Position numbers and translations under genes: made by a program. From positions 1-62,462 of the forward strand of contig CAZGSX010000004.1 in the NCBI GenBank assembly GCA_964528475.1: a stretch of DNA of 62,462 nucleotides. The letters are read 5' to 3'. Source of the stretch: an uncultured Anaerolineales bacterium. Its GTDB lineage: Bacteria; Chloroflexota; Anaerolineae; B4-G1. Each line of letters opens with the position of its first letter. Position 1 is the stretch's first letter. A model generated the notes under the pieces. It saw only the letters and a program-made list of their open reading frames with translations, made no database searches and was not told the origin of the DNA. Shown in pieces: positions 3,626-34,621 of this stretch.

Positions 3626-4849
3626 ATGAAGACAGACATCAATCGTTTGATGGAAGAGCGCGGACTGGACGCCCTGGTCATAACGGGACCCACCAGAGAC
3701 AACCCAGCCATGGCGTACGCAACCAACGGCGCACGCCTGACCCAGGGGATTTTCATTCAGAAGCGGGAAGAGGAGCCGATTCTGTTCTGTTCGCCTATGG
3801 AGAGGGACGAGGCTGCGGTCAGCGGGCTGACGGTGATCGGCTTAAACAAATATGATTTCACACGTATCCTCCGCGAGAAGGGTGATCGCTTAGCGGCGAC
3901 AGTCGAGTTGTACCGCCGCATCTTTGCTGACCTCGCCGTGACCGGTCAGGTGGGTTTCCACGGCAAGGCCGACCAAGGACAAGCCTGGTTGTTACTTAAT
4001 ACCTTCAACGTCCAGCTCGACGAGATAACCATCTATGCGGACTTCGGAACTACGCTTGTTGACGAGGCGCGCGCTACAAAGGACGCGAACGAGGCCGAAC
4101 GCCTACGGGACATAGGGCGCGCCACGTGCAGGGTGGTGGAGCGTACCATTGCCTTCCTACGGTCCCACGATGTGGGCGACGACGTGCTGCTGCAAGTCGA
4201 CGCCACCCCCCTCACGGTCGGTCGGGTTCACGACGAGATCAGCCGCTACATCGCCGAGGAGCATCTTGATGATCCAGAGGGATTCATCTTCTCCATAGGT
4301 CGGGACGCTGGCGTGCCGCACAGCAAGGGACGACCGGAGGATGTGATGGCCCTGGGCAAGACTATCGTGTTTGATATCTTCCCAAGGGAAGCTGGTGGTG
4401 GCTACTTCTTCGATATGACGCGGACATTCTGCCTCGGTTACGCGCCACCCCAAGTGAAGGACGCGTATCAGGATGTGTCGCAGTGCATGGAGGCGGTACT
4501 TGATGCGTACGAGGTAGGTGTAGAAACAAGGCACTACCAACAGATGACGTGTGAGTTCTTTGAGGACCGGGGGCACCCGACCATCGCCGCCGACTCCAAG
4601 ACAGAGAGGGGCTACATCCACAGTGTCGGGCACGGCCTCGGGTTGGCCGTGCACGAGGAGCCACGCTTCAGCGACGATCCCACCAACACGGATGTGCTGC
4701 TGCCCGGACATGTGTTTACCTGCGAGCCAGGGCTGTACTACCCCGATCTGGGCTTCGGCATGCGGATCGAGGACGTGATCTGGATCGACGGAGAGGGCGC
4801 CGTGCATAATCTGACGGATTTCCCGAAGGAGCTGGTCATCGAATTCTAG
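3626..4849 (+). CDS. M24 family metallopeptidase (Xaa-Pro aminopeptidase/prolidase-like)
   Basis: Creatinase-like N-domain plus M24 pita-bread motifs (FDIFPREAGGGYFFDMTRTF, HSVGHGLGLAVHEEP, FTCEPGLY, RIED). ATG at 3626 has SD GGAAAGGAG. The upstream 20 codons of the tracked ORF have no support. Confidence 0.85.
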   Translation: MKTDINRLMEERGLDALVITGPTRDNPAMAYATNGARLTQGIFIQKREEEPILFCSPMERDEAAVSGLTVIGLNKYDFTRILREKGDRLAATVELYRRIFADLAVTGQVGFHGKADQGQAWLLLNTFNVQLDEITIYADFGTTLVDEARATKDANEAERLRDIGRATCRVVERTIAFLRSHDVGDDVLLQVDATPLTVGRVHDEISRYIAEEHLDDPEGFIFSIGRDAGVPHSKGRPEDVMALGKTIVFDIFPREAGGGYFFDMTRTFCLGYAPPQVKDAYQDVSQCMEAVLDAYEVGVETRHYQQMTCEFFEDRGHPTIAADSKTERGYIHSVGHGLGLAVHEEPRFSDDPTNTDVLLPGHVFTCEPGLYYPDLGFGMRIEDVIWIDGEGAVHNLTDFPKELVIEF

Positions 4850-4904
4850 CCCAAGATGCCGGACCCAGCTCCGCGTCAGGGCTGCCAGTCAAACCAAGGA
4901 CCCC

Positions 4905-5972
4905 ATGACCCGAATCTTGGCGATCGAGACGTCGTGCGACGAAACAGCCGCTGCGGTGATCGAGAATGGACAGCGCATTCTGTCCAACATTGTCGCGTCC
5001 CAGGTTGAGCTGCACGCTGAGTATGGCGGCGTGTTCCCCGAGATGGCCTCCCGCGCCCATGTGGAGGCCATTGTTCCCGTCATCGAGCGGGCCATGGAGG
5101 AGGCGCACGTCAGCTTCAACGATCTGGATGCGATAGCCGTCACCTATGGGCCAGGCTTGGCGGGCTCCCTCATGGTGGGGGTCAACGTTGCTAAGGGGCT
5201 GGCGCTGGGCCGTGACCTCCCGCTGATCGGGATCAACCACCTGGAGGCTCACGTGTATGCCCATTGGCTGGACGTGGAGGGCGAAGGGGCGGCGCGGGGC
5301 GAGCTCGACTTCCCCCTCCTGTCGCTCTTGGTTTCCGGAGGCCATACGGAACTGACCCTGGTGCACGCGCACGGCAACTATGAGCATCTGGGCAGCACGT
5401 TGGACGACGCGGCAGGTGAGGCCTTCGACAAGGTCGGTCGGCTGCTGGGCCTACCCTATCCAGGCGGGCCGGAGATCGAGCGTGTCGCTGAAAACGGCAG
5501 CCCGGATGCCTTCGACTTTCCCCGGGCGTGGCTGGACGACGCCCACTCCACGTCCCCGGAGGGCTCAGCCGCCCACACCTGGGACTTCAGCTTCAGTGGG
5601 CTCAAGACGGCCGTGCTGCGCCAGGTACAGACGTACAGCGATCGGCCGCGCGGTCGGCTCCTGGCTGACCTGGCTGCCAGCTTCCAAGCCGCGGTGGTCG
5701 ATGTGCTGTCGACCAAGGCGGCGCAGGCTGCTGAGGCGTTCGATGTGACAGCGGTCCTGCTGTCCGGTGGCGTGACTGCCAATCAGAGTCTTCGGGCCGC
5801 GACGGTGCGACGGGTTGCGATTCCCGTCTATTACCCGCCTGTGTTCCTATGCACCGACAACGCTGCCATGGTGGGCGCTTGTGCCCACCAGCATCTCGTG
5901 GCGGATGACATAGGGCGTCACGCGCGATCCGGCCTTGACCTAGACATAGTCCCCGGATTGAGACTAGGTTGA
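4905..5972 (+). CDS. tsaD: tRNA N6-adenosine threonylcarbamoyltransferase TsaD
   Basis: 355 aa. Kae1/TsaD hallmarks are present: ILAIETSCDETAAAV, metal-binding INHLEAHV, SGGHTEL and LSGGVTAN. Confidence 0.95.
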   Translation: MTRILAIETSCDETAAAVIENGQRILSNIVASQVELHAEYGGVFPEMASRAHVEAIVPVIERAMEEAHVSFNDLDAIAVTYGPGLAGSLMVGVNVAKGLALGRDLPLIGINHLEAHVYAHWLDVEGEGAARGELDFPLLSLLVSGGHTELTLVHAHGNYEHLGSTLDDAAGEAFDKVGRLLGLPYPGGPEIERVAENGSPDAFDFPRAWLDDAHSTSPEGSAAHTWDFSFSGLKTAVLRQVQTYSDRPRGRLLADLAASFQAAVVDVLSTKAAQAAEAFDVTAVLLSGGVTANQSLRAATVRRVAIPVYYPPVFLCTDNAAMVGACAHQHLVADDIGRHARSGLDLDIVPGLRLG

Positions 5973-6427
5973 CAGAGCCGAGGGGAGCCGTATCGCGGAT
6001 TCGCCCACTGGCCCTTGGCATGGTTTGGCGAGGTGACGAGCTGCTCGTGTTTGGGGAGCATGACCCAGCCGCGCACGAGACCTTCTCTCGACCACTTGGC
6101 GGAGAGAGCGAATTCGGTGAGCAGGGCGATGAGGCTCTGCGCCGTGAGTTCCGCGAGGAGCTTGGTGTCGAGCTGATCAACGTGCAGTACCGGGGCTTGG
6201 TAGAGAGCTTGTTTACCTACAAAGGGCAGCCAGGTCACGAGATCGTGATGGTCTAGCAGGCAGACCTGGCATCACCTCATCTTTACGACCAGGAGGCATT
6301 CGTCTTGGAGGATGATCACGGTGCCCTCAAGGCAACTTGGATGTCTATGGGAAGACTGGACGGCGGAGAGCTACCTCTCTGTCCCGATGGCCTGATGAAT
6401 CTGCTCCAGGAAGAAAGGGGGCGCTGA
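5969..6427 (+). pseudogene. Nudix hydrolase interrupted by an in-frame TAG at 6254-6256
   Basis: Perfect Nudix box (GESEFGEQGDEALRREFREELGV). The frame stays open after the TAG for 56 more codons of Nudix-like C-terminus (...ATWMSMGRLDGGELPLCPDGLMNLL). It ends in TGA at 6425 overlapping the sppA ATG (TGATG). Confidence 0.75.
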
Positions 6428-8166
6428 TGCACCCGCTGGATCTCCCACGCAACGCCATCCTATCCCTCCGCAACACGGTGCGCTCGCTCCGGCGAGGGGG
6501 ACTTGACTTCGTCGTCGTCCCGCTGGAAGGCTGCTTCCCAGAGCGTACACCGCGCCGGGCCCGGCTTCCGTTCCCGCTCAGCATGCTGCCTATGCTTCCC
6601 TCTGAGGTGAGCCTAGAAGAGATGGAGCAGAGGATCGAGCTGCTGGGAAACGACCAGCGCGTGAAGGGCGTGGTTTTTCGCATCCAGGGCCTCCAGGCTG
6701 GGAGTGCAACCCTGTACACGCTGCGGGAGTTGATGCTGGAACTGGGCCAGAGGGGAAAACACACCGTGGCCTGGCTCTCCGCTGCCGACACATGGGATTA
6801 CTACCTAGCATCTGCCTGTGCGGAGATCGTTCTGGCCCCGTCGGGGCGCCTCCACGTGCTGGGCCTGCGCAGCGAGGCGCTGTTCCTCAAGGACACGATG
6901 GGTCTGGTCGGCATCGAGGCCGATCTGGAGTCGATCGCCGAGTACAAAGTGACACCCAACATGTTCCGTCGCAGCTCCATGACGGAGCCGCACCGCGAGA
7001 TGCTGGAGGCGATCCTCGACTCCGTCTTTGATACCCTCATCACGGCCATCGCCGAGGGAAGGGGCATGCCCGTAGATGACGCCCGGCGGCTCGTCGACTC
7101 GATGCCCATGATGCCCAATCCGGCCCTGGAATCAGGCCTCATTGATGCCATCCTGTACGAGGACGAATTGCCCGCTCATCTCGCGTCCGTGGTGAAGCCA
7201 TCCACTCCCAAGTCGAAGAGCTCCAAGACCACAACTTCGCACACCCCTGTGATGACTTGGGACCGAGCAGCTCGCTGGCTGAAGGAGCCACCCTCCTGGA
7301 CCACGAAACAGCGGATTGGGGTGATCTCCCTGCAGGGAATGATCGTTCCCGGCAAGAGCCGTCGGATGCCGGTCCCGCTGCCGCTGCCGCTTGAGGCCCA
7401 AGCCGGCGCGGAGACCCTCGTGGCAGCCCTGCGCCAAGCTGAGGCCGACACACATATCGCTGCAGTGATCCTTCACGTAGACTCGCCCGGCGGTTCCTCC
7501 TTGGCCTCCGACCTGATCTGGCGACAAGTGCGACGCCTCAGGGAGCAGAAGCCAGTGGTGGTGCTGATGGGCGAACGGGCCGCCTCGGGTGGATATTACG
7601 TCTCGGCGCCAGCGAATCACATCGTGGCCCGCCCGTCCACTCTGACGGGGTCCATCGGCATCTGGGGCGGCAAGTTCGTGGTCGACGAGTTGTACGAGCG
7701 GCTGAAGGTAGGACGAGAGGAGCTTCAGCGCGGGGCCAGAGCAGATCTCTACAGCGAGCTTAGGCCATTCGACGAGGAGCAACGGGAGCAGGTGCGTCGT
7801 GAACTAGGGGAGACGTACGCGCGGTTCAAGCAGATCGTCGCCCGGGGTCGGGACATGACGGAGGATGAAGTCGAATCCGTCGCCCGCGGTCGCGTCTGGA
7901 CAGGCGAGCAGGCGAAAGCTATCGGCCTGGTGGACGAGCTGGGCAGCTTTGAGACGGCGCTGACGGCGGCGAAGGCTCTGGCCGATCTCGACCCGGACAA
8001 GGAGACCACCGTGATTCCGATCACGCCGCCCCGGCAGGATATCCTTCCCCAACCCTTCCCCGCCGAGAGTCCGGGAGGATGGAACAGCCTCACGGAGGTC
8101 TTTAGAGACCTGGGACGCGAGCGGATCTGGGCTATGGCCCCTTGGACCATACGCTGGCGGGGATAG
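6427..8166 (+). CDS. sppA: signal peptide peptidase SppA (two-domain, 67K type)
   Basis: Two S49/ClpP-fold halves. The second has the catalytic Ser context GERAASGGYYVS and GSIGIWGG. The ATG at 6427 is coupled to the upstream stop. The tracked start at 6337 lies inside the Nudix frame region. Confidence 0.85.
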   Translation: MHPLDLPRNAILSLRNTVRSLRRGGLDFVVVPLEGCFPERTPRRARLPFPLSMLPMLPSEVSLEEMEQRIELLGNDQRVKGVVFRIQGLQAGSATLYTLRELMLELGQRGKHTVAWLSAADTWDYYLASACAEIVLAPSGRLHVLGLRSEALFLKDTMGLVGIEADLESIAEYKVTPNMFRRSSMTEPHREMLEAILDSVFDTLITAIAEGRGMPVDDARRLVDSMPMMPNPALESGLIDAILYEDELPAHLASVVKPSTPKSKSSKTTTSHTPVMTWDRAARWLKEPPSWTTKQRIGVISLQGMIVPGKSRRMPVPLPLPLEAQAGAETLVAALRQAEADTHIAAVILHVDSPGGSSLASDLIWRQVRRLREQKPVVVLMGERAASGGYYVSAPANHIVARPSTLTGSIGIWGGKFVVDELYERLKVGREELQRGARADLYSELRPFDEEQREQVRRELGETYARFKQIVARGRDMTEDEVESVARGRVWTGEQAKAIGLVDELGSFETALTAAKALADLDPDKETTVIPITPPRQDILPQPFPAESPGGWNSLTEVFRDLGRERIWAMAPWTIRWRG

Positions 8167-8208
8167 CGTTCGGCGCAACAAAGCGGTGACTAAGACAAAG
8201 GACGCGGA

Positions 8209-27059: not shown

Positions 27060-27674
27060 TCACTCCTCGCCCATCGTCGCCAGTTGCTGGCGCAGCGCAT
27101 CCGCCTCCATCACCCCCACATGTCCCTCCACCTCCCCTTCGCGATCGACGAAGATCAGGGTGGGGATGGCGCGTACGGTGGCGCGCTGGAGCAGATTCCG
27201 ATTCCGCTCATCGTAGACGTCGACGTCCACCAGCGCCACCGAGTCAGAGAAACCGGGGTACACCTCCTCAACAATCCCGGTCATCCTCACGCATTGCACG
27301 CAGGTGTCGGAGTGAAAGAAGACAAACACCGGCTTACGGGCACTCAGAAGGCGATCCAACCGCGCCTCGGGCAACAGATCCTGGGTCGCGGAAGACGCCC
27401 CTGTGCTCGCTGCCTCCGTGGTAGCCCAGCCCCGGGACGTCGAGCTACCAGATTGCGATGCCGTGGGGATGGCCTGCTCGGGCGGCGCGGTCGGTTCAGC
27501 TGTGACGGAGTCCCTCAATGCAGCCGGGGGTTGCCGCGTCTTCAGGAACAGGACAGCGCCAACCAAGAGGAAAACTCCTGCGACGACAACAACCTGGCAG
27601 AGCGGCAACCGGGCCCACATGCCCCGTCCGGAGGATTCACGGGCTTCACGACAAGAGCGGGATTTTCGCTTCAT
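27060..27674 (-). CDS. membrane-anchored thioredoxin-like protein (TlpA/ResA-like topology, CVQC site)
   Basis: ATG at 27674 overlaps the upstream stop (ATGA). It has one N-terminal TM helix (LCQVVVVAGVFLLVGAVLFL), a Pro/Thr/Ser linker and a thioredoxin fold (VFVFFHSDTCVQCVRM...AIPTLIFV). Confidence 0.8.
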   Translation of the reverse strand: MKRKSRSCREARESSGRGMWARLPLCQVVVVAGVFLLVGAVLFLKTRQPPAALRDSVTAEPTAPPEQAIPTASQSGSSTSRGWATTEAASTGASSATQDLLPEARLDRLLSARKPVFVFFHSDTCVQCVRMTGIVEEVYPGFSDSVALVDVDVYDERNRNLLQRATVRAIPTLIFVDREGEVEGHVGVMEADALRQQLATMGEE

Positions 27675-29653
27675 ACCAGTGTAACCACCATCCAGCCGGC
27701 CAACAGGAAGAACAGCGCCGCCGTCGCCAGCTTGACCTTGGCCGTGTGTCGGTGGATGAGGAGACCCAGCTGCTGAGACGTCGTTCCGAAGTACGCCAGC
27801 ACGAAGACGACCACCAGCGGCAGAATGAACATCAGGTTGTAAAGCACCAGATAGAACCCGGCCTGCGCCTGCATCTCCGGAACGCCTAGGACGAAGAGAA
27901 TGGTTGGGAGGTAGACCTGTCCGGTGCAAGCGAGCTCGATGAGCGAGACCACAACCCCCGTGACAAAGGTCACCGGCACGAAGGCCCTCGCGTCGGCCCT
28001 CTCGCGGATCGCCTGGTTAACTCGCCGACGTAGCCGGGTCGGCATGGCGAGACGCATCTCCGTCGCCTTCCCGGTACGAGCCTGCCACCAGTCGTAGAGG
28101 CTGCCGGCAGCCAGGAGGAGACAGAGCGCCGCGGTGAAGCCGTAGATCCAGCGGCTCACGGCATCCAGGAAGGGCAACGCGGCCAGAAACTTCAGCACGC
28201 CGAAGCCGACCCCGAGATACGTCAGGAAGACACCTAGCGCAAACGCTCCGCCGGCCAGCAGCACCTGCCGACCCTCCCGACCCACAAAAGCCAGATAGGA
28301 GATGAAGAAGACTAACGTCGCGAACGCGCAGGGGTTGAGCCCGTCCACGAGCCCCGCGGCGAGCACCGTGATCAGGCTGAAGGAACGGAAACGCTCGATA
28401 ATGCCCGAGACCGCATCGCCACCGGTCACGTCCGACCCTGAACATATCGGCTCGGCGCCGGTCTCCGCGTAGCGGGCAAGCAGATCTTCCAGGCTGTTGG
28501 TATGCAGCTCCTCCCCTACCAGCGCCTCATCACCGACGAAGATAGCCGGTGCGGTCAACCGCTTGCCCACCGGTACGCCGGCCCTTTCCCCCAGGCGTTC
28601 AGACAGTGGCGCGTCCTCGCGGACGTCGAGCGTGCAGACGTTCAGCTGCGGATACCGCTTCCGTAGGTAATTCAAGGCGAGCTGTACTCGGTCGCAGTCT
28701 GGGCAGCCCACCTGGTAGAAGTAGGCTACGTGGATGGGAGCCCCATTCGCCTCCTCCGGTGAGGCAGCCTCAGGCGCGGGCGTCGGTTCCACAACCGGGA
28801 GACCCACGCCGCCCATCTTCAAGTACGACTCCACCAGCTGCGGCAGCTCCGCCCGCGCCTCCTCCTCTCCCGCCAAGACGTGGTCGCCGATGAAAATCAC
28901 AGGCATCTCCGCCCGCGTCACACCGTAGCGCCGCTCGAGCGTACGTAAGAGATTGTAGTTCTCGGTCGAGCCCTCGACGTCCCGCTGGTCGACAACGAGC
29001 CTCGATCCATAGGTCTTCTCTAGAGGCGCGATGACCTCCTCCTCCACTGTCACGCATTCGGGGCACAGCCGGTCGTAGAAGAAGAGGACATGGGCCACGG
29101 CATCTTTCGTGCCTACGACCAGGTCGTCGTCACACTCAGGGCAATATTTGGCCGTCGCCGTAGGGCCCGGGGTGGGCTCATCTACGCTCGGCGTCGGCGT
29201 CCTCTCCAAGCCGTCCAACAGTCCGGGGATGTCGGGGTAGACCACGCCGCCCGCCGCTAGATGCTGCTCCACTAGCCTCGGCAGTTTCTCTGCGATCTGC
29301 CCGGAACCGGTCAGGACCGTGTCGCCGATGAACAACATAGGCACGCCCTGCCGTCCCGCCGGCACTTGATAAGCCTCGAGCGCGGCCAACCACACCTCGT
29401 AGCTCGCTGGATCGGTGATCTCGATAAGCCGGATGACCAGGCGATCACCAAATTTCTCGTCCAGCGAGGGCAGGTGCTCCTCCATCACCTCGTGACAGTG
29501 CGGACAGCCTTCAGACCAGAATAGAACCGCCCGAACCACCGGGTCATCGGCGCGGACGGCAAGGACCGTCCCAGCGAACAGGAGAGTCAGAAGAAGACCC
29601 ACAGACGGTCTCAGCCGTCTCGCCTGGAGCGATGCCACTGGCTTGTCGTTCAT
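27671..29653 (-). CDS. exported triple thioredoxin-fold protein fused to a DsbD_2-like membrane domain
   Basis: Signal peptide, then three paralogous about 100-aa domains (WSEGCPHC, RLCPECV with an extra YCPEC, QVGCPDC). Each ends in a (I/L)F(I/V)GD...L(V/L)E motif. A 6-TM domain follows with GLNPCAF and ELACTGQVYLP. ATG at 29653 has SD GAGAGAGG. Confidence 0.8.
   Translation of the reverse strand: MNDKPVASLQARRLRPSVGLLLTLLFAGTVLAVRADDPVVRAVLFWSEGCPHCHEVMEEHLPSLDEKFGDRLVIRLIEITDPASYEVWLAALEAYQVPAGRQGVPMLFIGDTVLTGSGQIAEKLPRLVEQHLAAGGVVYPDIPGLLDGLERTPTPSVDEPTPGPTATAKYCPECDDDLVVGTKDAVAHVLFFYDRLCPECVTVEEEVIAPLEKTYGSRLVVDQRDVEGSTENYNLLRTLERRYGVTRAEMPVIFIGDHVLAGEEEARAELPQLVESYLKMGGVGLPVVEPTPAPEAASPEEANGAPIHVAYFYQVGCPDCDRVQLALNYLRKRYPQLNVCTLDVREDAPLSERLGERAGVPVGKRLTAPAIFVGDEALVGEELHTNSLEDLLARYAETGAEPICSGSDVTGGDAVSGIIERFRSFSLITVLAAGLVDGLNPCAFATLVFFISYLAFVGREGRQVLLAGGAFALGVFLTYLGVGFGVLKFLAALPFLDAVSRWIYGFTAALCLLLAAGSLYDWWQARTGKATEMRLAMPTRLRRRVNQAIRERADARAFVPVTFVTGVVVSLIELACTGQVYLPTILFVLGVPEMQAQAGFYLVLYNLMFILPLVVVFVLAYFGTTSQQLGLLIHRHTAKVKLATAALFFLLAGWMVVTLV
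28427..29545 (-). repeat. three tandem thioredoxin-fold domain repeats inside the fusion CDS
   Basis: Approximate repeat bounds are 29545-29222, 29104-28772 and 28729-28427. Shared pattern: hydrophobic beta strand, CPxC, then PMLFIGDTVLTG / PVIFIGDHVLAG / PAIFVGDEALVG, then LPRLVEQHL / LPQLVESYL / LEDLLARY. Confidence 0.7.
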
Positions 29654-29829
29654 CGAACCTCTCTCACGCAATCAGACACTACGGTAGAAGTCACGCACTG
29701 GATCAACTCCCAAACAGAGCCGCACAACGGAGAACAGACTAAGATCTCTACGTCTCCTCTCTGCAGATCGATGTCGCAACAGCCGCGCCCACTGTCTCCA
29801 GTTTCCAGGGTAACCGACGGCATCATCCT

Positions 29830-30293: not shown

Positions 30294-30560
30294 CTACTTC
30301 AACCCCGCCTCGCGCAGAGCGCCCACCAGACTCTCGTGGCTAGGTGCCAAGCCAACAAACTTGACCAACTCCCCCACGACCAGCGCAGGTGCGTTGCCGA
30401 TGGCATATTCCTCCCACTCGTTGTCGCCTGGTCCCGTATGGAAGGTGATGGTCACCTGATCGCCAAATTCGTCCTCAATGTCTCTGAGCAGCCGCTTGAC
30501 TGCCACACCTCCCGAGCAGGGAGGTATGGAGACAAATGCTTCGATCGTTACTTGAGACAT
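30294..30560 (-). CDS. mini-thioredoxin paralog 4 (CSGG, single Cys)
   Basis: 88 aa. The start overlaps paralog 3 by 13 nt, with SD GGGAGG. Its layout matches its neighbours (VSIPPCSGGVAV...APALVVGE...LVGALREAGLK). Confidence 0.7.
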   Translation of the reverse strand: MSQVTIEAFVSIPPCSGGVAVKRLLRDIEDEFGDQVTITFHTGPGDNEWEEYAIGNAPALVVGELVKFVGLAPSHESLVGALREAGLK

Positions 30561-30817
30561 AGACCAGCCTCCCTGAGTGCATTGTTGAGCGTGGCCTCGC
30601 TGGGGCACATGCCCTCAATACGGATGGACCCATTGACGACCGCCGCCGGGACACAGAAGAGCTGGTAGGCCTCGAACTTCTCCAATCCCTCGGCGCCTTC
30701 GTAGATGGTGAGCTCCAAATCATCTTCATACCTAGCTGCGACGCGCTCTGTTAGCTCAATGATCGCCACACAGCCTGGGCACGGGGGATCACCGCTGAAA
30801 ACCTCCAGTTTCACCAT
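30548..30817 (-). CDS. mini-thioredoxin paralog 3 (CPGC)
   Basis: 89 aa. Has SGDPPCPGCVAI, VPAAVVNG and the C-terminal LNNALREAGL shared with paralog 4. Confidence 0.8.
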   Translation of the reverse strand: MVKLEVFSGDPPCPGCVAIIELTERVAARYEDDLELTIYEGAEGLEKFEAYQLFCVPAAVVNGSIRIEGMCPSEATLNNALREAGLCLK

Positions 30818-30820
30818 ATC

Positions 30821-31078
30821 CTAGTCTCCTAACTTGGTCTCAATGACGGACTTCAGCCTGTCGGCCGGTACTACCTTGCCTTTGCCAAGGACTTCGTCGC
30901 CGATGACGACCAGTGGGGTGGTCATAAGCCCATACTGCTCGGCCTCGGGTGCCAAGGCGTCGAGTTCCACAACCTCGACCCGACCGGGAAACTGGTCGGC
31001 TGCCTCTTGAGCCTCACGCTTCGCCCTCCTGCAGTTGGCGCAGGGCGGGGTGGTGCCAAAGACCTTGATCTGAAGCAT
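30821..31078 (-). CDS. mini-thioredoxin paralog 2 (CANC)
   Basis: 85 aa. Has GTTPPCANCRRA and TTPLVVIGDEVLGKGKVVP. Thioredoxin_3-like. Confidence 0.8.
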   Translation of the reverse strand: MLQIKVFGTTPPCANCRRAKREAQEAADQFPGRVEVVELDALAPEAEQYGLMTTPLVVIGDEVLGKGKVVPADRLKSVIETKLGD

Positions 31079-31127
31079 GCTCTTTCTCGCTCCCTTGTTC
31101 CTATAGTCGCGACTCTCGCCGGACGGT

Positions 31128-31373
31128 TCACAAACCCCGTGCCGTTCGGATCCAATCAGCGATCTCCTCCTTGCGAGGTATGCGCCCCGTTGCCTTCACC
31201 TCCTCGTCGATGACGAGGGCAGGTGTGCTCATCACGTCATAGGCCAGGATGGCGTCCATGTTCTCCAGCTTGGTCACGGTGACCTCAACACCCATCTCGT
31301 GAGCCGCTTCCCGAGCCAGAGCCTCCACTCGCTTGCACTTGGGGCATCCCATCCCCAGAATCTTGATCTCCAT
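31128..31373 (-). CDS. mini-thioredoxin paralog 1 (Thioredoxin_3 / redox-active disulfide protein 2 type, CPKC)
   Basis: 81 aa. Has KILGMGCPKCKRVE and STPALVIDEEVKATGRIP, the canonical form of this family. SD GGGAGGAAG. Confidence 0.85.
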   Translation of the reverse strand: MEIKILGMGCPKCKRVEALAREAAHEMGVEVTVTKLENMDAILAYDVMSTPALVIDEEVKATGRIPRKEEIADWIRTARGL

Positions 31374-31835: not shown

Positions 31836-33317
31836 TCACTTTGTCTCCTCCGCCGTTACCAGAATCCGGCGATGACGACTGGTCCACGCAGCGAGAACGG
31901 CCAGCGACGCGAGAGCCCCGGCCAGAATCGCTCCGATGACCCAGCCGCTCATGCCCTCCAGCCAACCACCAAACAGCAGCCCTGCCAGCGTACTGAAGAT
32001 GGTCACCAGCACGACGTACACCGCTGTTTTCTTTCGCCCGATGACCGTGTTGGTGATCAGGATTGACTGCAGGCTCAGCTCCGGATCGGCCAACAGGTAA
32101 GCCAGTAGGACCCCGCGATGCATGCCCAGCGAGAGGAACGTCCGTGCGATGGGGACTTCCACCAGCGTGGGGAAGTACATAAAGACGCCGAAGAGCACCC
32201 CAGCCAAGTTAGCCAACACTGTGTTCCGACCAGCGAGGGTCTCAATCCACGTCCTGGGGATGATGGCCCGGGCCATGCCTGCCAGAAAGACACCTACTAA
32301 CAGCAGGGGGATGATCTGCTTCACGAAGCGCCACATCTCCCACAGCCATTCGCGTATCTGATATTCGTCGAAGGCATTAATCGCCATCCACCACACCGCT
32401 CCAATGAGCACGACCTCGGCCGCCAAGCGACCAGACATGCCAATCGTCAGGCCCGTCTCTAGTGTCGTCACGTTGAACGACGCGACGAGCAGGGTTAGCG
32501 TGATTAGACCTAGCGCGCCGTACGTCCAGCGGTTGAACCCGCGATCCACGTCGTTCAGCCCCAGCCACGCCGTGACTGCGATGAGAACCAGCAGACCGAT
32601 TAGGAAGACTCCGTGCACGCTCACGCCCTCGATGCCCATCGATGGATTCGGTGGCACCACTCCGTCTAGCCAAGTCTGCAAAGAGCTGGCCCACGATCCC
32701 GGCACGGTGAAGGTGGCGTAACTCCTCGTCAGAAGATCAACCTGCAACGTCCCCGCGATAAGCACGCCCAGTAGCAGGACGAAGAAGATCCAGGTGGATG
32801 CAGGAACACCGGCTCCTTGCACGAAGGCGTTCGCCTCATTGGTGGCTCTGTTATGTGCTCTGTCATCTTCGCGGAAGAACCAAGCCATGAGCATTCCGAT
32901 GCCGATGCCAAACACGACCGACAAAATCACCCGCGCGATGGCGATGTCCATGCCGATCATCGCGCCCGTGAACGTGATCGCTAGAATGTTGACCGCCGGA
33001 CCGACGAAGAGGAAGGTGATAGCTGGACCAAGCCCAGCACCCTTCTTGTAGATGCTGGCGAACAGGGGCATGATGGTGCACGAACAGACTGCCAACACGA
33101 AGCCGCCGATCGCCGACATGGGATAGGACAACCACCGTGGCGCATCCCGTCCGAGATACTTGGTGATCGCCTCTTTGGGGATTAGCGCTGCCAGCGCACC
33201 AGCGATGAAAAACGCCGGTAGCAAACACAACAGCACGTGTGCGGCCAGATAGGCTGCAAGGCTTCCCAAGCCTGCCTGTAGTAACATCCTTATCGTCTCC
33301 AGAATTGCCACGTTCAA
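31836..33317 (-). CDS. UPF0718/YraQ-family permease (ArsP-like CSC motif)
   Basis: 493 aa, multi-TM. Has LAVCSCTIMPLFASIYKKGAGLGPAITFLFVGPAVN, typical of the predicted-permease family usually paired with ArsR and Thioredoxin_3 genes. Confidence 0.85.
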   Translation of the reverse strand: MNVAILETIRMLLQAGLGSLAAYLAAHVLLCLLPAFFIAGALAALIPKEAITKYLGRDAPRWLSYPMSAIGGFVLAVCSCTIMPLFASIYKKGAGLGPAITFLFVGPAVNILAITFTGAMIGMDIAIARVILSVVFGIGIGMLMAWFFREDDRAHNRATNEANAFVQGAGVPASTWIFFVLLLGVLIAGTLQVDLLTRSYATFTVPGSWASSLQTWLDGVVPPNPSMGIEGVSVHGVFLIGLLVLIAVTAWLGLNDVDRGFNRWTYGALGLITLTLLVASFNVTTLETGLTIGMSGRLAAEVVLIGAVWWMAINAFDEYQIREWLWEMWRFVKQIIPLLLVGVFLAGMARAIIPRTWIETLAGRNTVLANLAGVLFGVFMYFPTLVEVPIARTFLSLGMHRGVLLAYLLADPELSLQSILITNTVIGRKKTAVYVVLVTIFSTLAGLLFGGWLEGMSGWVIGAILAGALASLAVLAAWTSRHRRILVTAEETK

Positions 33318-33386: not shown

Positions 33387-33826
33387 TCAGCCGCCAATCT
33401 CCTCAACGGCGTTGGGGGTCTTCTCTATCGCCTCGGCCGTGGAGGGGTTCCATGGGATCCAGCCAGACGACACCGTCGTCGAAGTCGACACCTGCGTCGC
33501 ACAGCGCATCCTTGAACATCTTGCGCTGCATCGTGGGAGCGCCACCGCCGACGATGAGCTTCGCACCCGACTTGGCATAGTCGTGCCAGAAGCTATCCCC
33601 GTCCTCCACACAAAGCTGCGGGCGAACGATATCGTACTCCACATCCAGTTCGTTGCGTACATAGTTCATGAGCGGCCATAGGTCCAACTCGTCAAATCAG
33701 GGCACTCGCCGGTGCAGATGCACATCATGAAGCCCGGCTTTCCGTCCTCGGCGATCTGATAGTCTACCTTCTCAGACTCAATGTCTCTCGGTGGACGTGT
33801 TGAACAGACGCTACCCCGCCACATCA
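33387..33826 (-). pseudogene. Cys-rich small protein gene, apparently frameshifted
   Basis: ORF a (MWRGS...GFMMCICTGECPD) stops at 33673. ORF b (33687-33403) continues in another frame as ...DLWPLMNYVRNELDVEYDIVRPQLCVEDGDSFWHDYAKSGAKLIVGGGAP... Adding one T to the T3 run (plus-strand AAA 33694-33696) fuses them as ...ECPDFDELDLWPL... A second shift near the 3' end is possible. Loose resemblance to FlpD/MvhD-type Fe-S modules. Confidence 0.45.
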
Positions 33827-33969
33827 GCAGCGTCACGCCCGGGGGGCGGGCGCTTCAGCCCCGGTCCCTGCGAGCAATGGCAGAGGCAGCACCACGTATG
33901 CGTGGACACCCTCACAGGCGGGTTAGCTCTTGGCACTCGTCCTGCACTCCTGGCGAAAGCGCTTTGCAC

Positions 33970-34173
33970 TCAGCGCTGCTTCCTCTCGCAGTCGATGCAG
34001 AGGTCCGTCTCCCGGTTCGTGCGGTATTCCTTGCCGCAGCCGGGGCACGTGACTCTGCGCAGGCCATCGTTCTTCTTCGGCCGCGGTCGCAGCTCCGGCG
34101 GGAGAGCGCCAAAACCGTCTTGCAGGCACGTGCATTCTAGCGAAGCCTCCCTCTTGTCATCGCCGCTGCTCAT
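33970..34173 (-). CDS. small zinc-ribbon protein
   Basis: 67 aa with CPGC...(13 aa)...CIDC. The ATG overlaps the arsR stop (ATGA), implying translational coupling. Confidence 0.6.
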   Translation of the reverse strand: MSSGDDKREASLECTCLQDGFGALPPELRPRPKKNDGLRRVTCPGCGKEYRTNRETDLCIDCERKQR

Positions 34174-34553
34174 ATCATCTCCCCCACGGGCAAACTCTCA
34201 CCGGCTCGCGCGCCACCGCTCTCCTTGATTGCCATCGCTTCGCAGCGTGGGCAGGAGCACGCCTCGACAGGTCCGCGCTCCGCCGGCGGCCCCAGTAAGG
34301 CCTCCAGCACTCTTTCGACACCGGGGTCATCAAGGCTGTAGTAGACGAACAACCCTTCTCGGCGATCGGTCACCAGGTCGGCGTCCCGGAGCTGGCTGAG
34401 TTGCTGAGAGACATAGGGCTGGGGACGACGCACGCGCCCCTGAAGGTGACAGACGCAGGCCTCGCCGAGCCGAAGCTCGTCCACTATCTGAAGCCGTACA
34501 GGATGGGAGAGGACCTGCAGGACGTCGGACACACGCTGATATCGATTGCTCAT
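34170..34553 (-). CDS. ArsR/SmtB family transcriptional regulator (alpha-3 CVC plus C-terminal CSCPRC)
   Basis: Winged-helix sequence LSHPVRLQIVDELRLGEACVCHLQG...SQQLSQLRDADLV. ATG at 34553 has SD GGAAGGAA. Confidence 0.9.
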   Translation of the reverse strand: MSNRYQRVSDVLQVLSHPVRLQIVDELRLGEACVCHLQGRVRRPQPYVSQQLSQLRDADLVTDRREGLFVYYSLDDPGVERVLEALLGPPAERGPVEACSCPRCEAMAIKESGGARAGESLPVGEMI

Positions 34554-34573
34554 GCTTATATTCCTTCCGGATA

Positions 34574-34621
34574 ATATGCAGCTCATCGCATATAGTATAC
34601 CCTCGTTGCTGCATTTGTCAA
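34574..34621 (-). promoter_or_regulatory. arsR-operon promoter with an abutting palindromic operator
   Basis: Minus strand: TTGACA (34621-34616), 16 nt, TATACT (34599-34594). This is immediately followed by ATATGC-N8-GCATAT (34593-34574), which covers the expected start site. Confidence 0.55.

Follow-up and report, generated by a model that had tools for sequence, protein, structure and literature searches.

An ArsR–permease operon of Anaerolineae ends in a conserved cassette of differentiated mini-thioredoxins

Among the unexplained features of metal(loid) resistance loci in prokaryotes, small thioredoxin-like genes beside ArsR/ArsP-type permeases are one of the most common. Thioredoxin_3 genes in this position are already known, and the single-gene ArsE type is the only named one among them. 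ArsE has been reported as a protein of the PF13192 family that confers resistance to organoarsenicals, arsenic induces an operon of the order ArsR-ArsP-ArsE-DGC in P. mercurii ND132, and ArsP gives Campylobacter resistance to the organoarsenicals roxarsone and nitarsone (PMC7176098). The present study concerns a 62,462-nt stretch of DNA (the window) from an uncultured Anaerolineales bacterium (contig CAZGSX010000004.1, assembly GCA_964528475.1), in which four consecutive genes encode mini-thioredoxins that we designate P1, P2, P3 and P4. This array is not a local curiosity but the tail of a single conserved operon, and it consists of two modules: P1, and a separate, older P2-P3-P4 cassette.

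How does the array compare with the closest described systems? P1 is a bona fide member of the MTH895/ArsE family (TIGR00412; structure 1ILO), with about 80 amino acids, a minimal fold and a position beside an ArsR/ArsP_1 pair, and P2 shares the CANC motif of MtH895. However, P2, P3 and P4 stay under the family cut-off, P3 and P4 branch with MJ0307, and the known arrangement is a single gene rather than four. Among proteins of solved structure, MJ0307 and Mt0807 (TIGR00411; 1FO5 and 1NHO) come closest to P3 and P4 and share their length, topology, cis-proline and C-terminal FxGxxPS(K/R)E..L..A pattern. MJ0307 is a stand-alone thioredoxin with a CPHC motif, whereas P3 contains three extra cysteines, P4 lacks the second active-site cysteine and the two are encoded by an overlapping gene pair. 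The SAO system (SaoE and SaoT, and likewise TsoC, TsoX and HUIPC, further mini-thioredoxin (seleno)protein families in the NCBI catalog) also combines an ArsP-family CSC exporter with an MJ0307-like mini-thioredoxin that has an atypical CxxC, and its authors infer that a heavy metal or organometal is contacted directly. The array differs from the SAO system in that it contains no selenocysteine, and the scores of P3 against SaoT (NF040730; 25.5 bits, cut-off 65) and of the operon permease against SaoE (NF040736; 91.4 bits, cut-off 325) are below threshold. The conserved neighborhood of the cassette showed neither sao ABC-transporter genes nor MerB-like ones.

The two-unit PDO proteins (TIGR02187) provide a further parallel because two MJ0307-like units would cooperate, one of them often with a weaker or altered active site. 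However, P3 and P4 are separate polypeptides, their similarity to PDO is not significant, and the genome of the window has a canonical PDO beside a putative thioredoxin reductase. ArsD is a thioredoxin-fold arsenic metallochaperone that uses three cysteines to deliver As(III) to ArsA. As a small thioredoxin-fold protein of an ArsR-controlled efflux operon whose cysteines serve as metalloid ligands and not in redox, ArsD offers a functional parallel to P3 and P4, although its Pfam model gives only a trace match (P1, 14.3 bits, cut-off 27), the operon is without an ArsA ATPase and the cysteine pattern is different. Finally, the ArsEFG system (PF13192-type ArsE, ArsF and the permease ArsG) handles nitro-aromatic arsenicals. 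P1 is of the ArsE type, and the membrane domain of a 666-residue protein encoded downstream of P4 matches the ArsG efflux permease model weakly (18.5 bits, cut-off 200); ArsF was not identified.

An earlier note on this DNA had described four small open reading frames (ORFs) at this place, and all four are present and intact on the minus strand (Table 1). The gaps and the overlap that it listed, and a ribosome-binding site for each gene, are likewise borne out by the window sequence: P1 and P2 are separated by 49 nt, P2 and P3 by 3 nt, P3 and P4 overlap by 13 nt, and a GGAG-type Shine-Dalgarno sequence lies 7-9 nt 5' of every one of the four starts. As the note had also stated, the dipeptide within the CxxC motif is different in each copy and the second cysteine is gone in the last (CPKC, CANC, CPGC and CSGG), the N-terminal cysteine and the cis-proline are common to all, and P3 and P4 share a C-terminal ALREAGL motif. 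Its general view of the four proteins as homologous mini-thioredoxins with differentiated active sites thus stands. No signal peptide was seen in P1-P4 upon inspection by eye, and the four proteins are cytoplasmic thioredoxin folds. A longer, GTG-initiated ORF for P4 (to position 30608) finds no support among the orthologs, all of which begin with MS(K/Q), and selenocysteine recoding in the array is ruled out by intact ORFs with zero in-frame TGA codons.

Table 1. Features of the operon and its surroundings in the window
Feature	Coordinates	Strand	Description
P1	31128-31373	minus	81 aa, GCPKC; canonical MTH895/ArsE-type thioredoxin-like protein; optional in the operon
P2	30821-31078	minus	85 aa, PPCANC; opens the conserved cassette
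P3	30548-30817	minus	89 aa, PPCPGC; MJ0307-like thioredoxin; extra cysteines in FCVP, GMCPS and GLCLK
P4	30294-30560	minus	88 aa from ATG, PPCSGG (single cysteine); MJ0307-like sister paralog of P3
Near-consensus sigma-70-type promoter (predicted)	34594-34621	minus	TTGACA-16-TATACT, 11/12 matches; consensus match only; directly 5' of arsR
ArsR/SmtB-family metalloregulator	34170-34586	minus	NF033788 88.1 bits, cut-off 55; CVC in alpha3, C-terminal CxCPxC
67-aa zinc-ribbon-like ORF	33970-34173	minus	CxxC...CxxC; 3' of arsR; no family match
Two overlapping cysteine-containing ORFs	33403-33836	minus	56 and 94 aa; between arsR and the permease gene
ArsP_1-family (UPF0718) permease	31836-33317	minus	493 aa; PF03773 225.6 bits, cut-off 32.3; CSC motif
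666-aa fusion protein	27671-29671	minus	three thioredoxin-like domains and a DsbD/ArsG-like membrane domain; downstream of P4
289-aa thioredoxin-domain protein	27060-27929		often accompanies the 666-aa fusion

The family models separate P1 from the other three proteins. The Pfam model PF13192 (Thioredoxin_3; gathering cut-off 24.8 bits) is matched by P1 (94.6 bits), P2 (44.8) and P3 (38.6), and P4 alone fails (17.8), a PF13192 match being precomputed for some P4 orthologs. P1 passes the MTH895/ArsE model TIGR00412 (100.7 bits, cut-off 62) and matches the MtH895 structure 1ILO with an E value of 1.1e-13; P2 (39.3 bits), P3 (26.4) and P4 (14.8) fail TIGR00412. The MJ0307 family model TIGR00411 (cut-off 92.75 bits) is reached by none of the four (P1 39, P2 34.1, P3 35.5 and P4 27.9, the last without a CxxC), and P2, P3 and P4 reach no curated cut-off in the NCBIfam scan. 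In the same scan, the PDO model TIGR02187 (cut-off 185 bits) gives only weak alignments, in which P3 (27.3 bits) falls on the C-terminal unit and P4 (13.9 bits) on the N-terminal unit of the two-unit model; both fall short of the cut-off, and they are separate genes rather than one chain. The CANC motif of P2 does not contain a new dipeptide, being the native motif of MtH895 itself (GTGCANC).

Despite its Pfam score below the cut-off, P4 is, by sequence comparison and structure prediction, a thioredoxin fold because its AlphaFold2 model, the match of its ortholog profile to MJ0307 (1FO5, E value 2.7e-11) and its 36% identity to P3 (E value 5e-17) all point to this fold. The predicted structures of P3 and P4 (mean predicted local distance difference test scores of 93.2 and 92.8) have the same beta-alpha-beta-alpha-beta-beta-alpha topology and display the thioredoxin fold, which is defined by this core, an active-site cysteine that opens helix 1 and a cis-proline that precedes strand 3; the active-site cysteine and the cis-proline are invariant in the ortholog alignments. 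Foldseek searches of both models against the Protein Data Bank retrieved generic thioredoxins (top template modeling scores of 0.71-0.82) and no specialized match.

The conservation of the array was assessed in 39 related loci, which were collected by a P4 alignment and a back-translated pattern scan with one genome per species and which are nearly all labeled as Anaerolineae, Anaerolineales or Chloroflexota metagenome-assembled genomes (MAGs). Classification of their ORFs shows the order ArsR, ArsP_1 permease, [P1], P2, P3, P4 wherever the contig is long enough. About two thirds of the loci (25 of 39) were found to contain P1, and its position varies, sometimes lying 5' of the permease gene or 3' of P4. 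The motif in the P2 slot is mostly CANC and rarely CSNC, CVNC or CAKC. The P3 slot contains CPGC in every full-length ortholog, together with three further, essentially invariant cysteines, and the CSGG of the P4 slot is invariant in 35 of 35 sequences. The 13-nt overlap between P3 and P4 and a gap of 2-3 nt between P2 and P3 are constant in all Anaerolineae loci, and P2, P3 and P4 are tightly coupled in translation. A chance origin of the array can be dismissed because the four slots and their motifs recur in dozens of genomes, and we regard the array with high confidence as a functional conserved module.

Purifying selection acts strongly on the slot-specific active sites in every slot. The median ratio of nonsynonymous to synonymous substitution rates (dN/dS) falls along the array, from 0.17 in P1 through 0.11 in P2 and 0.077 in P3 to 0.070 in P4, and no protein of the operon is better conserved than P4, whose mean pairwise identity is 85.6%. 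At 90% identity, a large protein collection with metagenomes contains 864 clusters of P4 and 689 of P3, whose names are limited to 'hypothetical protein' or 'thioredoxin family protein'.

The operon is distributed in a patchy manner. In an even sample of 401 genomes of the class, P4 is present in 15, corresponding to 12 of 216 genera and at least nine families, which agrees with the earlier statement that single Thioredoxin_3 genes are commoner than the array. When 41 related genomes were scanned for Thioredoxin_3, five showed the same three- or four-gene runs, and the loci fetched from them agree with the window in motifs and in their order; within the genus of the window, the scan found the tandem run in one of 12 genomes besides the window's own. 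Identities of 74-85% between families suggest that the operon is accessory and probably exchanged. The earlier note had also considered that arrays with these motifs might prove common and already characterized. They are common in this one class, but they are uncharacterized there. As a separate observation, a 1.5-kb contig labeled as a Bacteroidales MAG (L040) contains a typical Anaerolineae-type P2-P3-P4 with 78% identity in P4; it has probably been mis-binned and would then not represent an occurrence in Bacteroidota.

Were the four genes generated by duplication within this operon? The earlier note had proposed a serial duplication, but a maximum-likelihood tree separates P1 and P2 from a group of P3, P4 and MJ0307/Mt0807, each side with support of 100/97. 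Every slot forms its own clade that takes in members from another phylum, and the P2 clade includes Bacillota members with support of 97/84. The slots are thus orthologous groups as judged from the tree, and the paralogs are old because each slot clade spans another phylum, which places the duplications long before the present operons. One part of the earlier argument survives: P3 and P4 are more closely related to each other than to either of the other two paralogs, in line with their shared C-terminal motif, and together they are the sister group of MJ0307/Mt0807 with support of 100/97.

The cassette also occurs outside Chloroflexota. A search of 1.84 billion representative proteins with the P4 profile returned only 92 matches. 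The divergent full-length P4-like proteins among them contain CSGG, CAGG or CTGM, or have no cysteine at the active-site position (P0256, P0260, P0270, P0271 and P0307), and the P3-like proteins among the divergent matches retain CxxC. The order P2-P3-P4 with overlapping genes is found on contigs of other lineages with a GC content of 43-64%. The cultured Bacillota species Desulfofundulus australicus DSM 11792 encodes P2 with CRKC, P3 with CPSC and P4 with CTGM, and its P3 and P4 genes again overlap by 13 nt. This cassette (locus L065, 5469-6273) lies within a cluster (4600-8200) of genes for corrinoid proteins, a URO-D-type methyltransferase, RACo and CobW, and is adjoined by genes for a TSCPD four-cysteine protein and a HUIPC-family mini-thioredoxin that scores above the cut-off (120.8 bits). 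The cassette is rare in the D. australicus phylum, being present in 2 of 401 genomes. Several further small thioredoxin-like ORFs are seen in the L065 cluster, and in a related genome (G816; L072, 5072-5932), an ORF just upstream resembles a MIP-family channel by eye (NPA motif).

On contigs with a GC content of 44% (L055-L057), a radical-SAM/SPASM maturase gene is followed, in this order, by genes for a 152-residue P1'-like protein, P2 with CARC, P3 with CSSC, a Cys-less P4 and a DOMON protein, and the P4 cluster of this type includes a protein labeled as coming from a Firmicutes MAG. In a lineage with a GC content of 64% (L060), two DGC-domain genes are followed by P2, P3 and P4 (CSGG). The order is P2, P3, Cys-less P4, P1 and DGC in L064, and DGC, P3-like, P4-like (CSGG) and the N-terminus of a membrane protein that is ACR3-like by eye in L058. 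In one natural protein (P0276), a P1'-like unit is fused to a P3-like one. These lineages bear on the proposal that the last gene encodes a terminal monothiol protein holding a mixed disulfide or persulfide. Such a property is not supported for the cassette as a whole, given that P4 carries CAGG or CTGM or is Cys-less elsewhere, but P4 may have a thiol role in Anaerolineae because the cysteine is invariant in that clade.

What is the biological function of the array? We propose, as a reading with an even chance of being correct, that the small proteins constitute an accessory set that handles thiols in the cytoplasm in support of metal(loid) export, in which P3 and P4 act as a coupled pair. 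ArsR would sense a thiophilic metal(loid), for which an arsenical is the most probable candidate, via the thiolates of CVC and CxCPxC, and the operon would then be derepressed. The CSC site of the permease would be the route by which the thiol-reactive species is exported. P1 would serve as a generic ArsE-type helper, the ordinary partner of ArsP-type permeases in many prokaryotes, and P2-P3-P4 would form a specialized cytoplasmic dithiol/thiolate relay. The small proteins may keep the substrate thiol-bound or reduced, and hence transport-competent, and pass it to the permease; alternatively, they may re-reduce the thiols of the permease and of target proteins. P3 and P4 would pair stoichiometrically to give a 'split' two-unit oxidoreductase, to which P3 would bring the redox or ligand cysteines and P4, as a largely non-redox or monothiol partner, would supply a binding surface or a third thiolate. 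In this scheme, we infer what the substrate is, in which direction thiols are transferred and that P3 forms a complex with P4.

The regulator and the permease are consistent with such a scheme. The five ArsR cysteines of CVC and CxCPxC are kept in 26-27 of 28 orthologs, and the CSC motif and Cys31 of the permease are kept in 30 of 30 sequences. The substrate may be thiophilic because the regulator is Cys-rich and the permease CSC is invariant, and the operon most likely helps to handle arsenic-type thiol-binding toxic elements. The membership of P1 in the MTH895/ArsE family and the neighbors of the operon add to this picture. ACR3 arsenite pumps that score above the equivalog cut-off are encoded directly 3' of P4 in two loci (L017 and L035), and ACR3 fragments are present in two others (L046 and L052). 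DGC-domain genes, which belong to the arsenic-induced operon described above, flank the cassette in L058 and L060 (Pfam PF08859) and, by eye, in L064, and tblastn with the DGC proteins of these three loci located further DGC genes at L029 and L052. In D. australicus, a separate cluster (L073, 2500-5800) encodes Acr3, a P1-type Thioredoxin_3 protein, DGC and an ArsP_1-type permease, with an adjoining radical-SAM gene. D. australicus thus carries both the ordinary single-thioredoxin arrangement and the P2-P3-P4 cassette. Taken together, the arsenical link of the operon is circumstantial but recurrent, and we consider it slightly better than an even proposition.

The pairing of P3 with P4 is suggested by several properties. 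The two proteins are sister paralogs, they always co-occur with overlapping genes, and they exhibit the two lowest dN/dS values of the operon. Furthermore, the cysteine positions are split in a complementary manner between P3 and P4 in different lineages. Judging from the thioredoxin-fold topology, Cys55 of P3, located two residues before the cis-proline, and Cys71, located in the beta4-alpha3 loop, should surround the CPGC motif. P4 proteins of other lineages retain cysteines at the two peripheral positions equivalent to Cys55 and Cys71 but have lost the active-site cysteine, which suggests that a shared site is built from P3 and P4. A P3-P4 complex is a tentative proposal that we place somewhat short of even.

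Several observations weigh against the proposed export function and its coupled pair. ACR3 adjoins the operon in only about 4 of the 39 loci, so that the arsenic link amounts to guilt by association. Copper, zinc, cadmium and mercury are equally open as substrates because the best curated match of the permease is SO_0444 Cu/Zn efflux (NF033936; 109.7 bits, cut-off 300, aligned over the N-terminal 130 residues). Cassettes without an exporter exist, as in the corrinoid methyltransferase cluster of D. australicus and beside the radical-SAM/SPASM maturase, and these contexts suggest that its redox role is more general. The putative P3-P4 complex is proposed from gene overlap and co-occurrence, the P4 profile search of the 1.84 billion representative proteins revealed no natural fusion of P3 with P4, and when P4 was compared by hhalign with the N-terminal unit of the PDO encoded in the same genome, the probability was a non-significant 1.9%.

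In its widest form, the proposal describes P2-P3-P4 as an undescribed cross-phylum, obligately co-translated machine, in which a P3-P4 heteromer fed by P2 would act as an arsenical or organometal(loid) thiolate chaperone or reductase, serving ArsP/ACR3 exporters in Chloroflexota and corrinoid methyl-transfer or metalloenzyme-maturation clusters in Bacillota. We regard this wider version as rather unlikely. If a heteromeric P3-P4 thiolate chaperone did exist, it would represent a new way to build two-unit thioredoxin-fold machines and would supply a missing cytoplasmic step in the organoarsenical or soft-metal export of Anaerolineae, a class abundant in habitats in which arsenic cycling is important (digesters, sediments and aquifers). 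Unless that reading holds, the cassette presents no new principle. In either case, a strongly constrained cassette is now defined, with differentiated active sites, a conserved 'dead' or monothiol member and an orthologous group for each slot, and a cultured carrier, D. australicus DSM 11792, is identified. No curated family model among those searched covers the cassette with its orthologous slots, degenerate member and cross-phylum spread, and no literature on it was found.

The main alternative to the export accessory function is that P2-P3-P4 is a general-purpose reductase or isomerase, in effect a 'split PDO', that maintains the protein thiols of neighboring Cys-rich or metal machinery and makes no direct contact with a metal(loid). 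The exporter-free corrinoid and radical-SAM contexts favor this view, as do the MJ0307-like nature of P3 and P4 and their weak alignments to the C-terminal and N-terminal units, respectively, of TIGR02187; a further weak alignment is that of P4 with the N-terminal unit of the PDO encoded in the window's genome. However, the similarity to PDO does not reach significance, and the cassette of Anaerolineae is always joined to the ArsR-permease unit. In addition, the genome of the window already encodes a canonical two-unit PDO of 217 amino acids with CQYC and CPYC motifs (contig C15; L005, 1405-3032), whose stop codon overlaps the start of a gene that resembles thioredoxin reductase by eye. With this putative PDO-thioredoxin reductase pair in the genome, the array would not be the sole disulfide-reductase system of the cell. 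We consider a general-purpose reductase unlikely, though more likely than the alternatives that follow.

A redox ladder, as the earlier note had suggested, would involve directional disulfide exchange from P1 through P2 and P3 to P4, with the dipeptides setting stepwise potentials and P4 acting as a terminal monothiol that holds a mixed disulfide or persulfide. The CxxC dipeptide tunes the redox potential in thioredoxin-fold proteins, and each slot retains its own dipeptide across dozens of species; the invariance of the P4 cysteine in the Anaerolineae clade is also in keeping with a ladder. Nonetheless, a fixed four-step series is not what the loci display. P1 belongs to another subfamily by its TIGR00412 match, is missing in about one third of the loci and is mobile in position, which leaves no fixed four-step order. 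Furthermore, P1 and P2 lie on a different deep branch from P3 and P4, P4 orthologs of other lineages are devoid of an active-site cysteine, and the operon contains no conserved reductase or terminal acceptor. The ladder is an improbable explanation.

A still weaker case can be made for sulfane-sulfur or persulfide trafficking, in which the array would be part of a sulfur-relay island with TusA, YeeE and DsrEFH-like proteins and P4 would act as a persulfide carrier. ArsR does resemble BigR-type sulfite/persulfide-sensing repressors, although below threshold (61.6 bits, cut-off 155). However, sulfur-relay genes are conserved beside the cassette in none of the 39 related loci, where ACR3, DGC and the DsbD-like fusion are instead the recurrent neighbors, and we judge this explanation very unlikely. 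A whole 14-kb sulfur/thiol island was also considered as one conserved unit and was rejected, given that only arsR through P4 is conserved across loci. Lastly, the idea that P4, and perhaps P3, is a redundant or decaying duplicate without a function of its own takes its cue from the missing second cysteine and the Pfam score below the cut-off, but it can be dismissed almost entirely in view of the conservation of P4 in identity, dN/dS, CSGG motif and number of clusters, and a P4 pseudogene is ruled out by the dN/dS ratio and the motif invariance.

The remaining features of the window belong to the surroundings of the array. The promoter-like element 5' of arsR probably drives the operon, as judged from its match to the consensus, and no second promoter-like site was found between arsR and P4. 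The operon permease is the sole full ArsP_1 gene of the window's genome, which is about 98% complete and in which no ACR3 was found. The two overlapping ORFs between arsR and the permease gene yield zero Pfam or NCBIfam matches and are absent from all 39 related loci; they lie outside the conserved operon and are possibly one frameshifted gene. Homologs of the 67-residue zinc-ribbon-like ORF occur at differing positions in L017 (between P1 and P2), L019 and L046. The 666-residue fusion recurs 3' of the cassette in seven loci, counting the window itself together with six of the 39 relatives, and the thioredoxin-domain protein listed last in Table 1 is often found with it. One additional protein was observed near the operon in other genomes. 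A 192-residue protein in L018 (5914-6492) contains a C-terminal 2x[4Fe-4S] ferredoxin-like motif with Fer4 matches below threshold and is a possible electron donor, and its homologs are encoded near the operon in L019, L022, L024, L030, L033 and L035.

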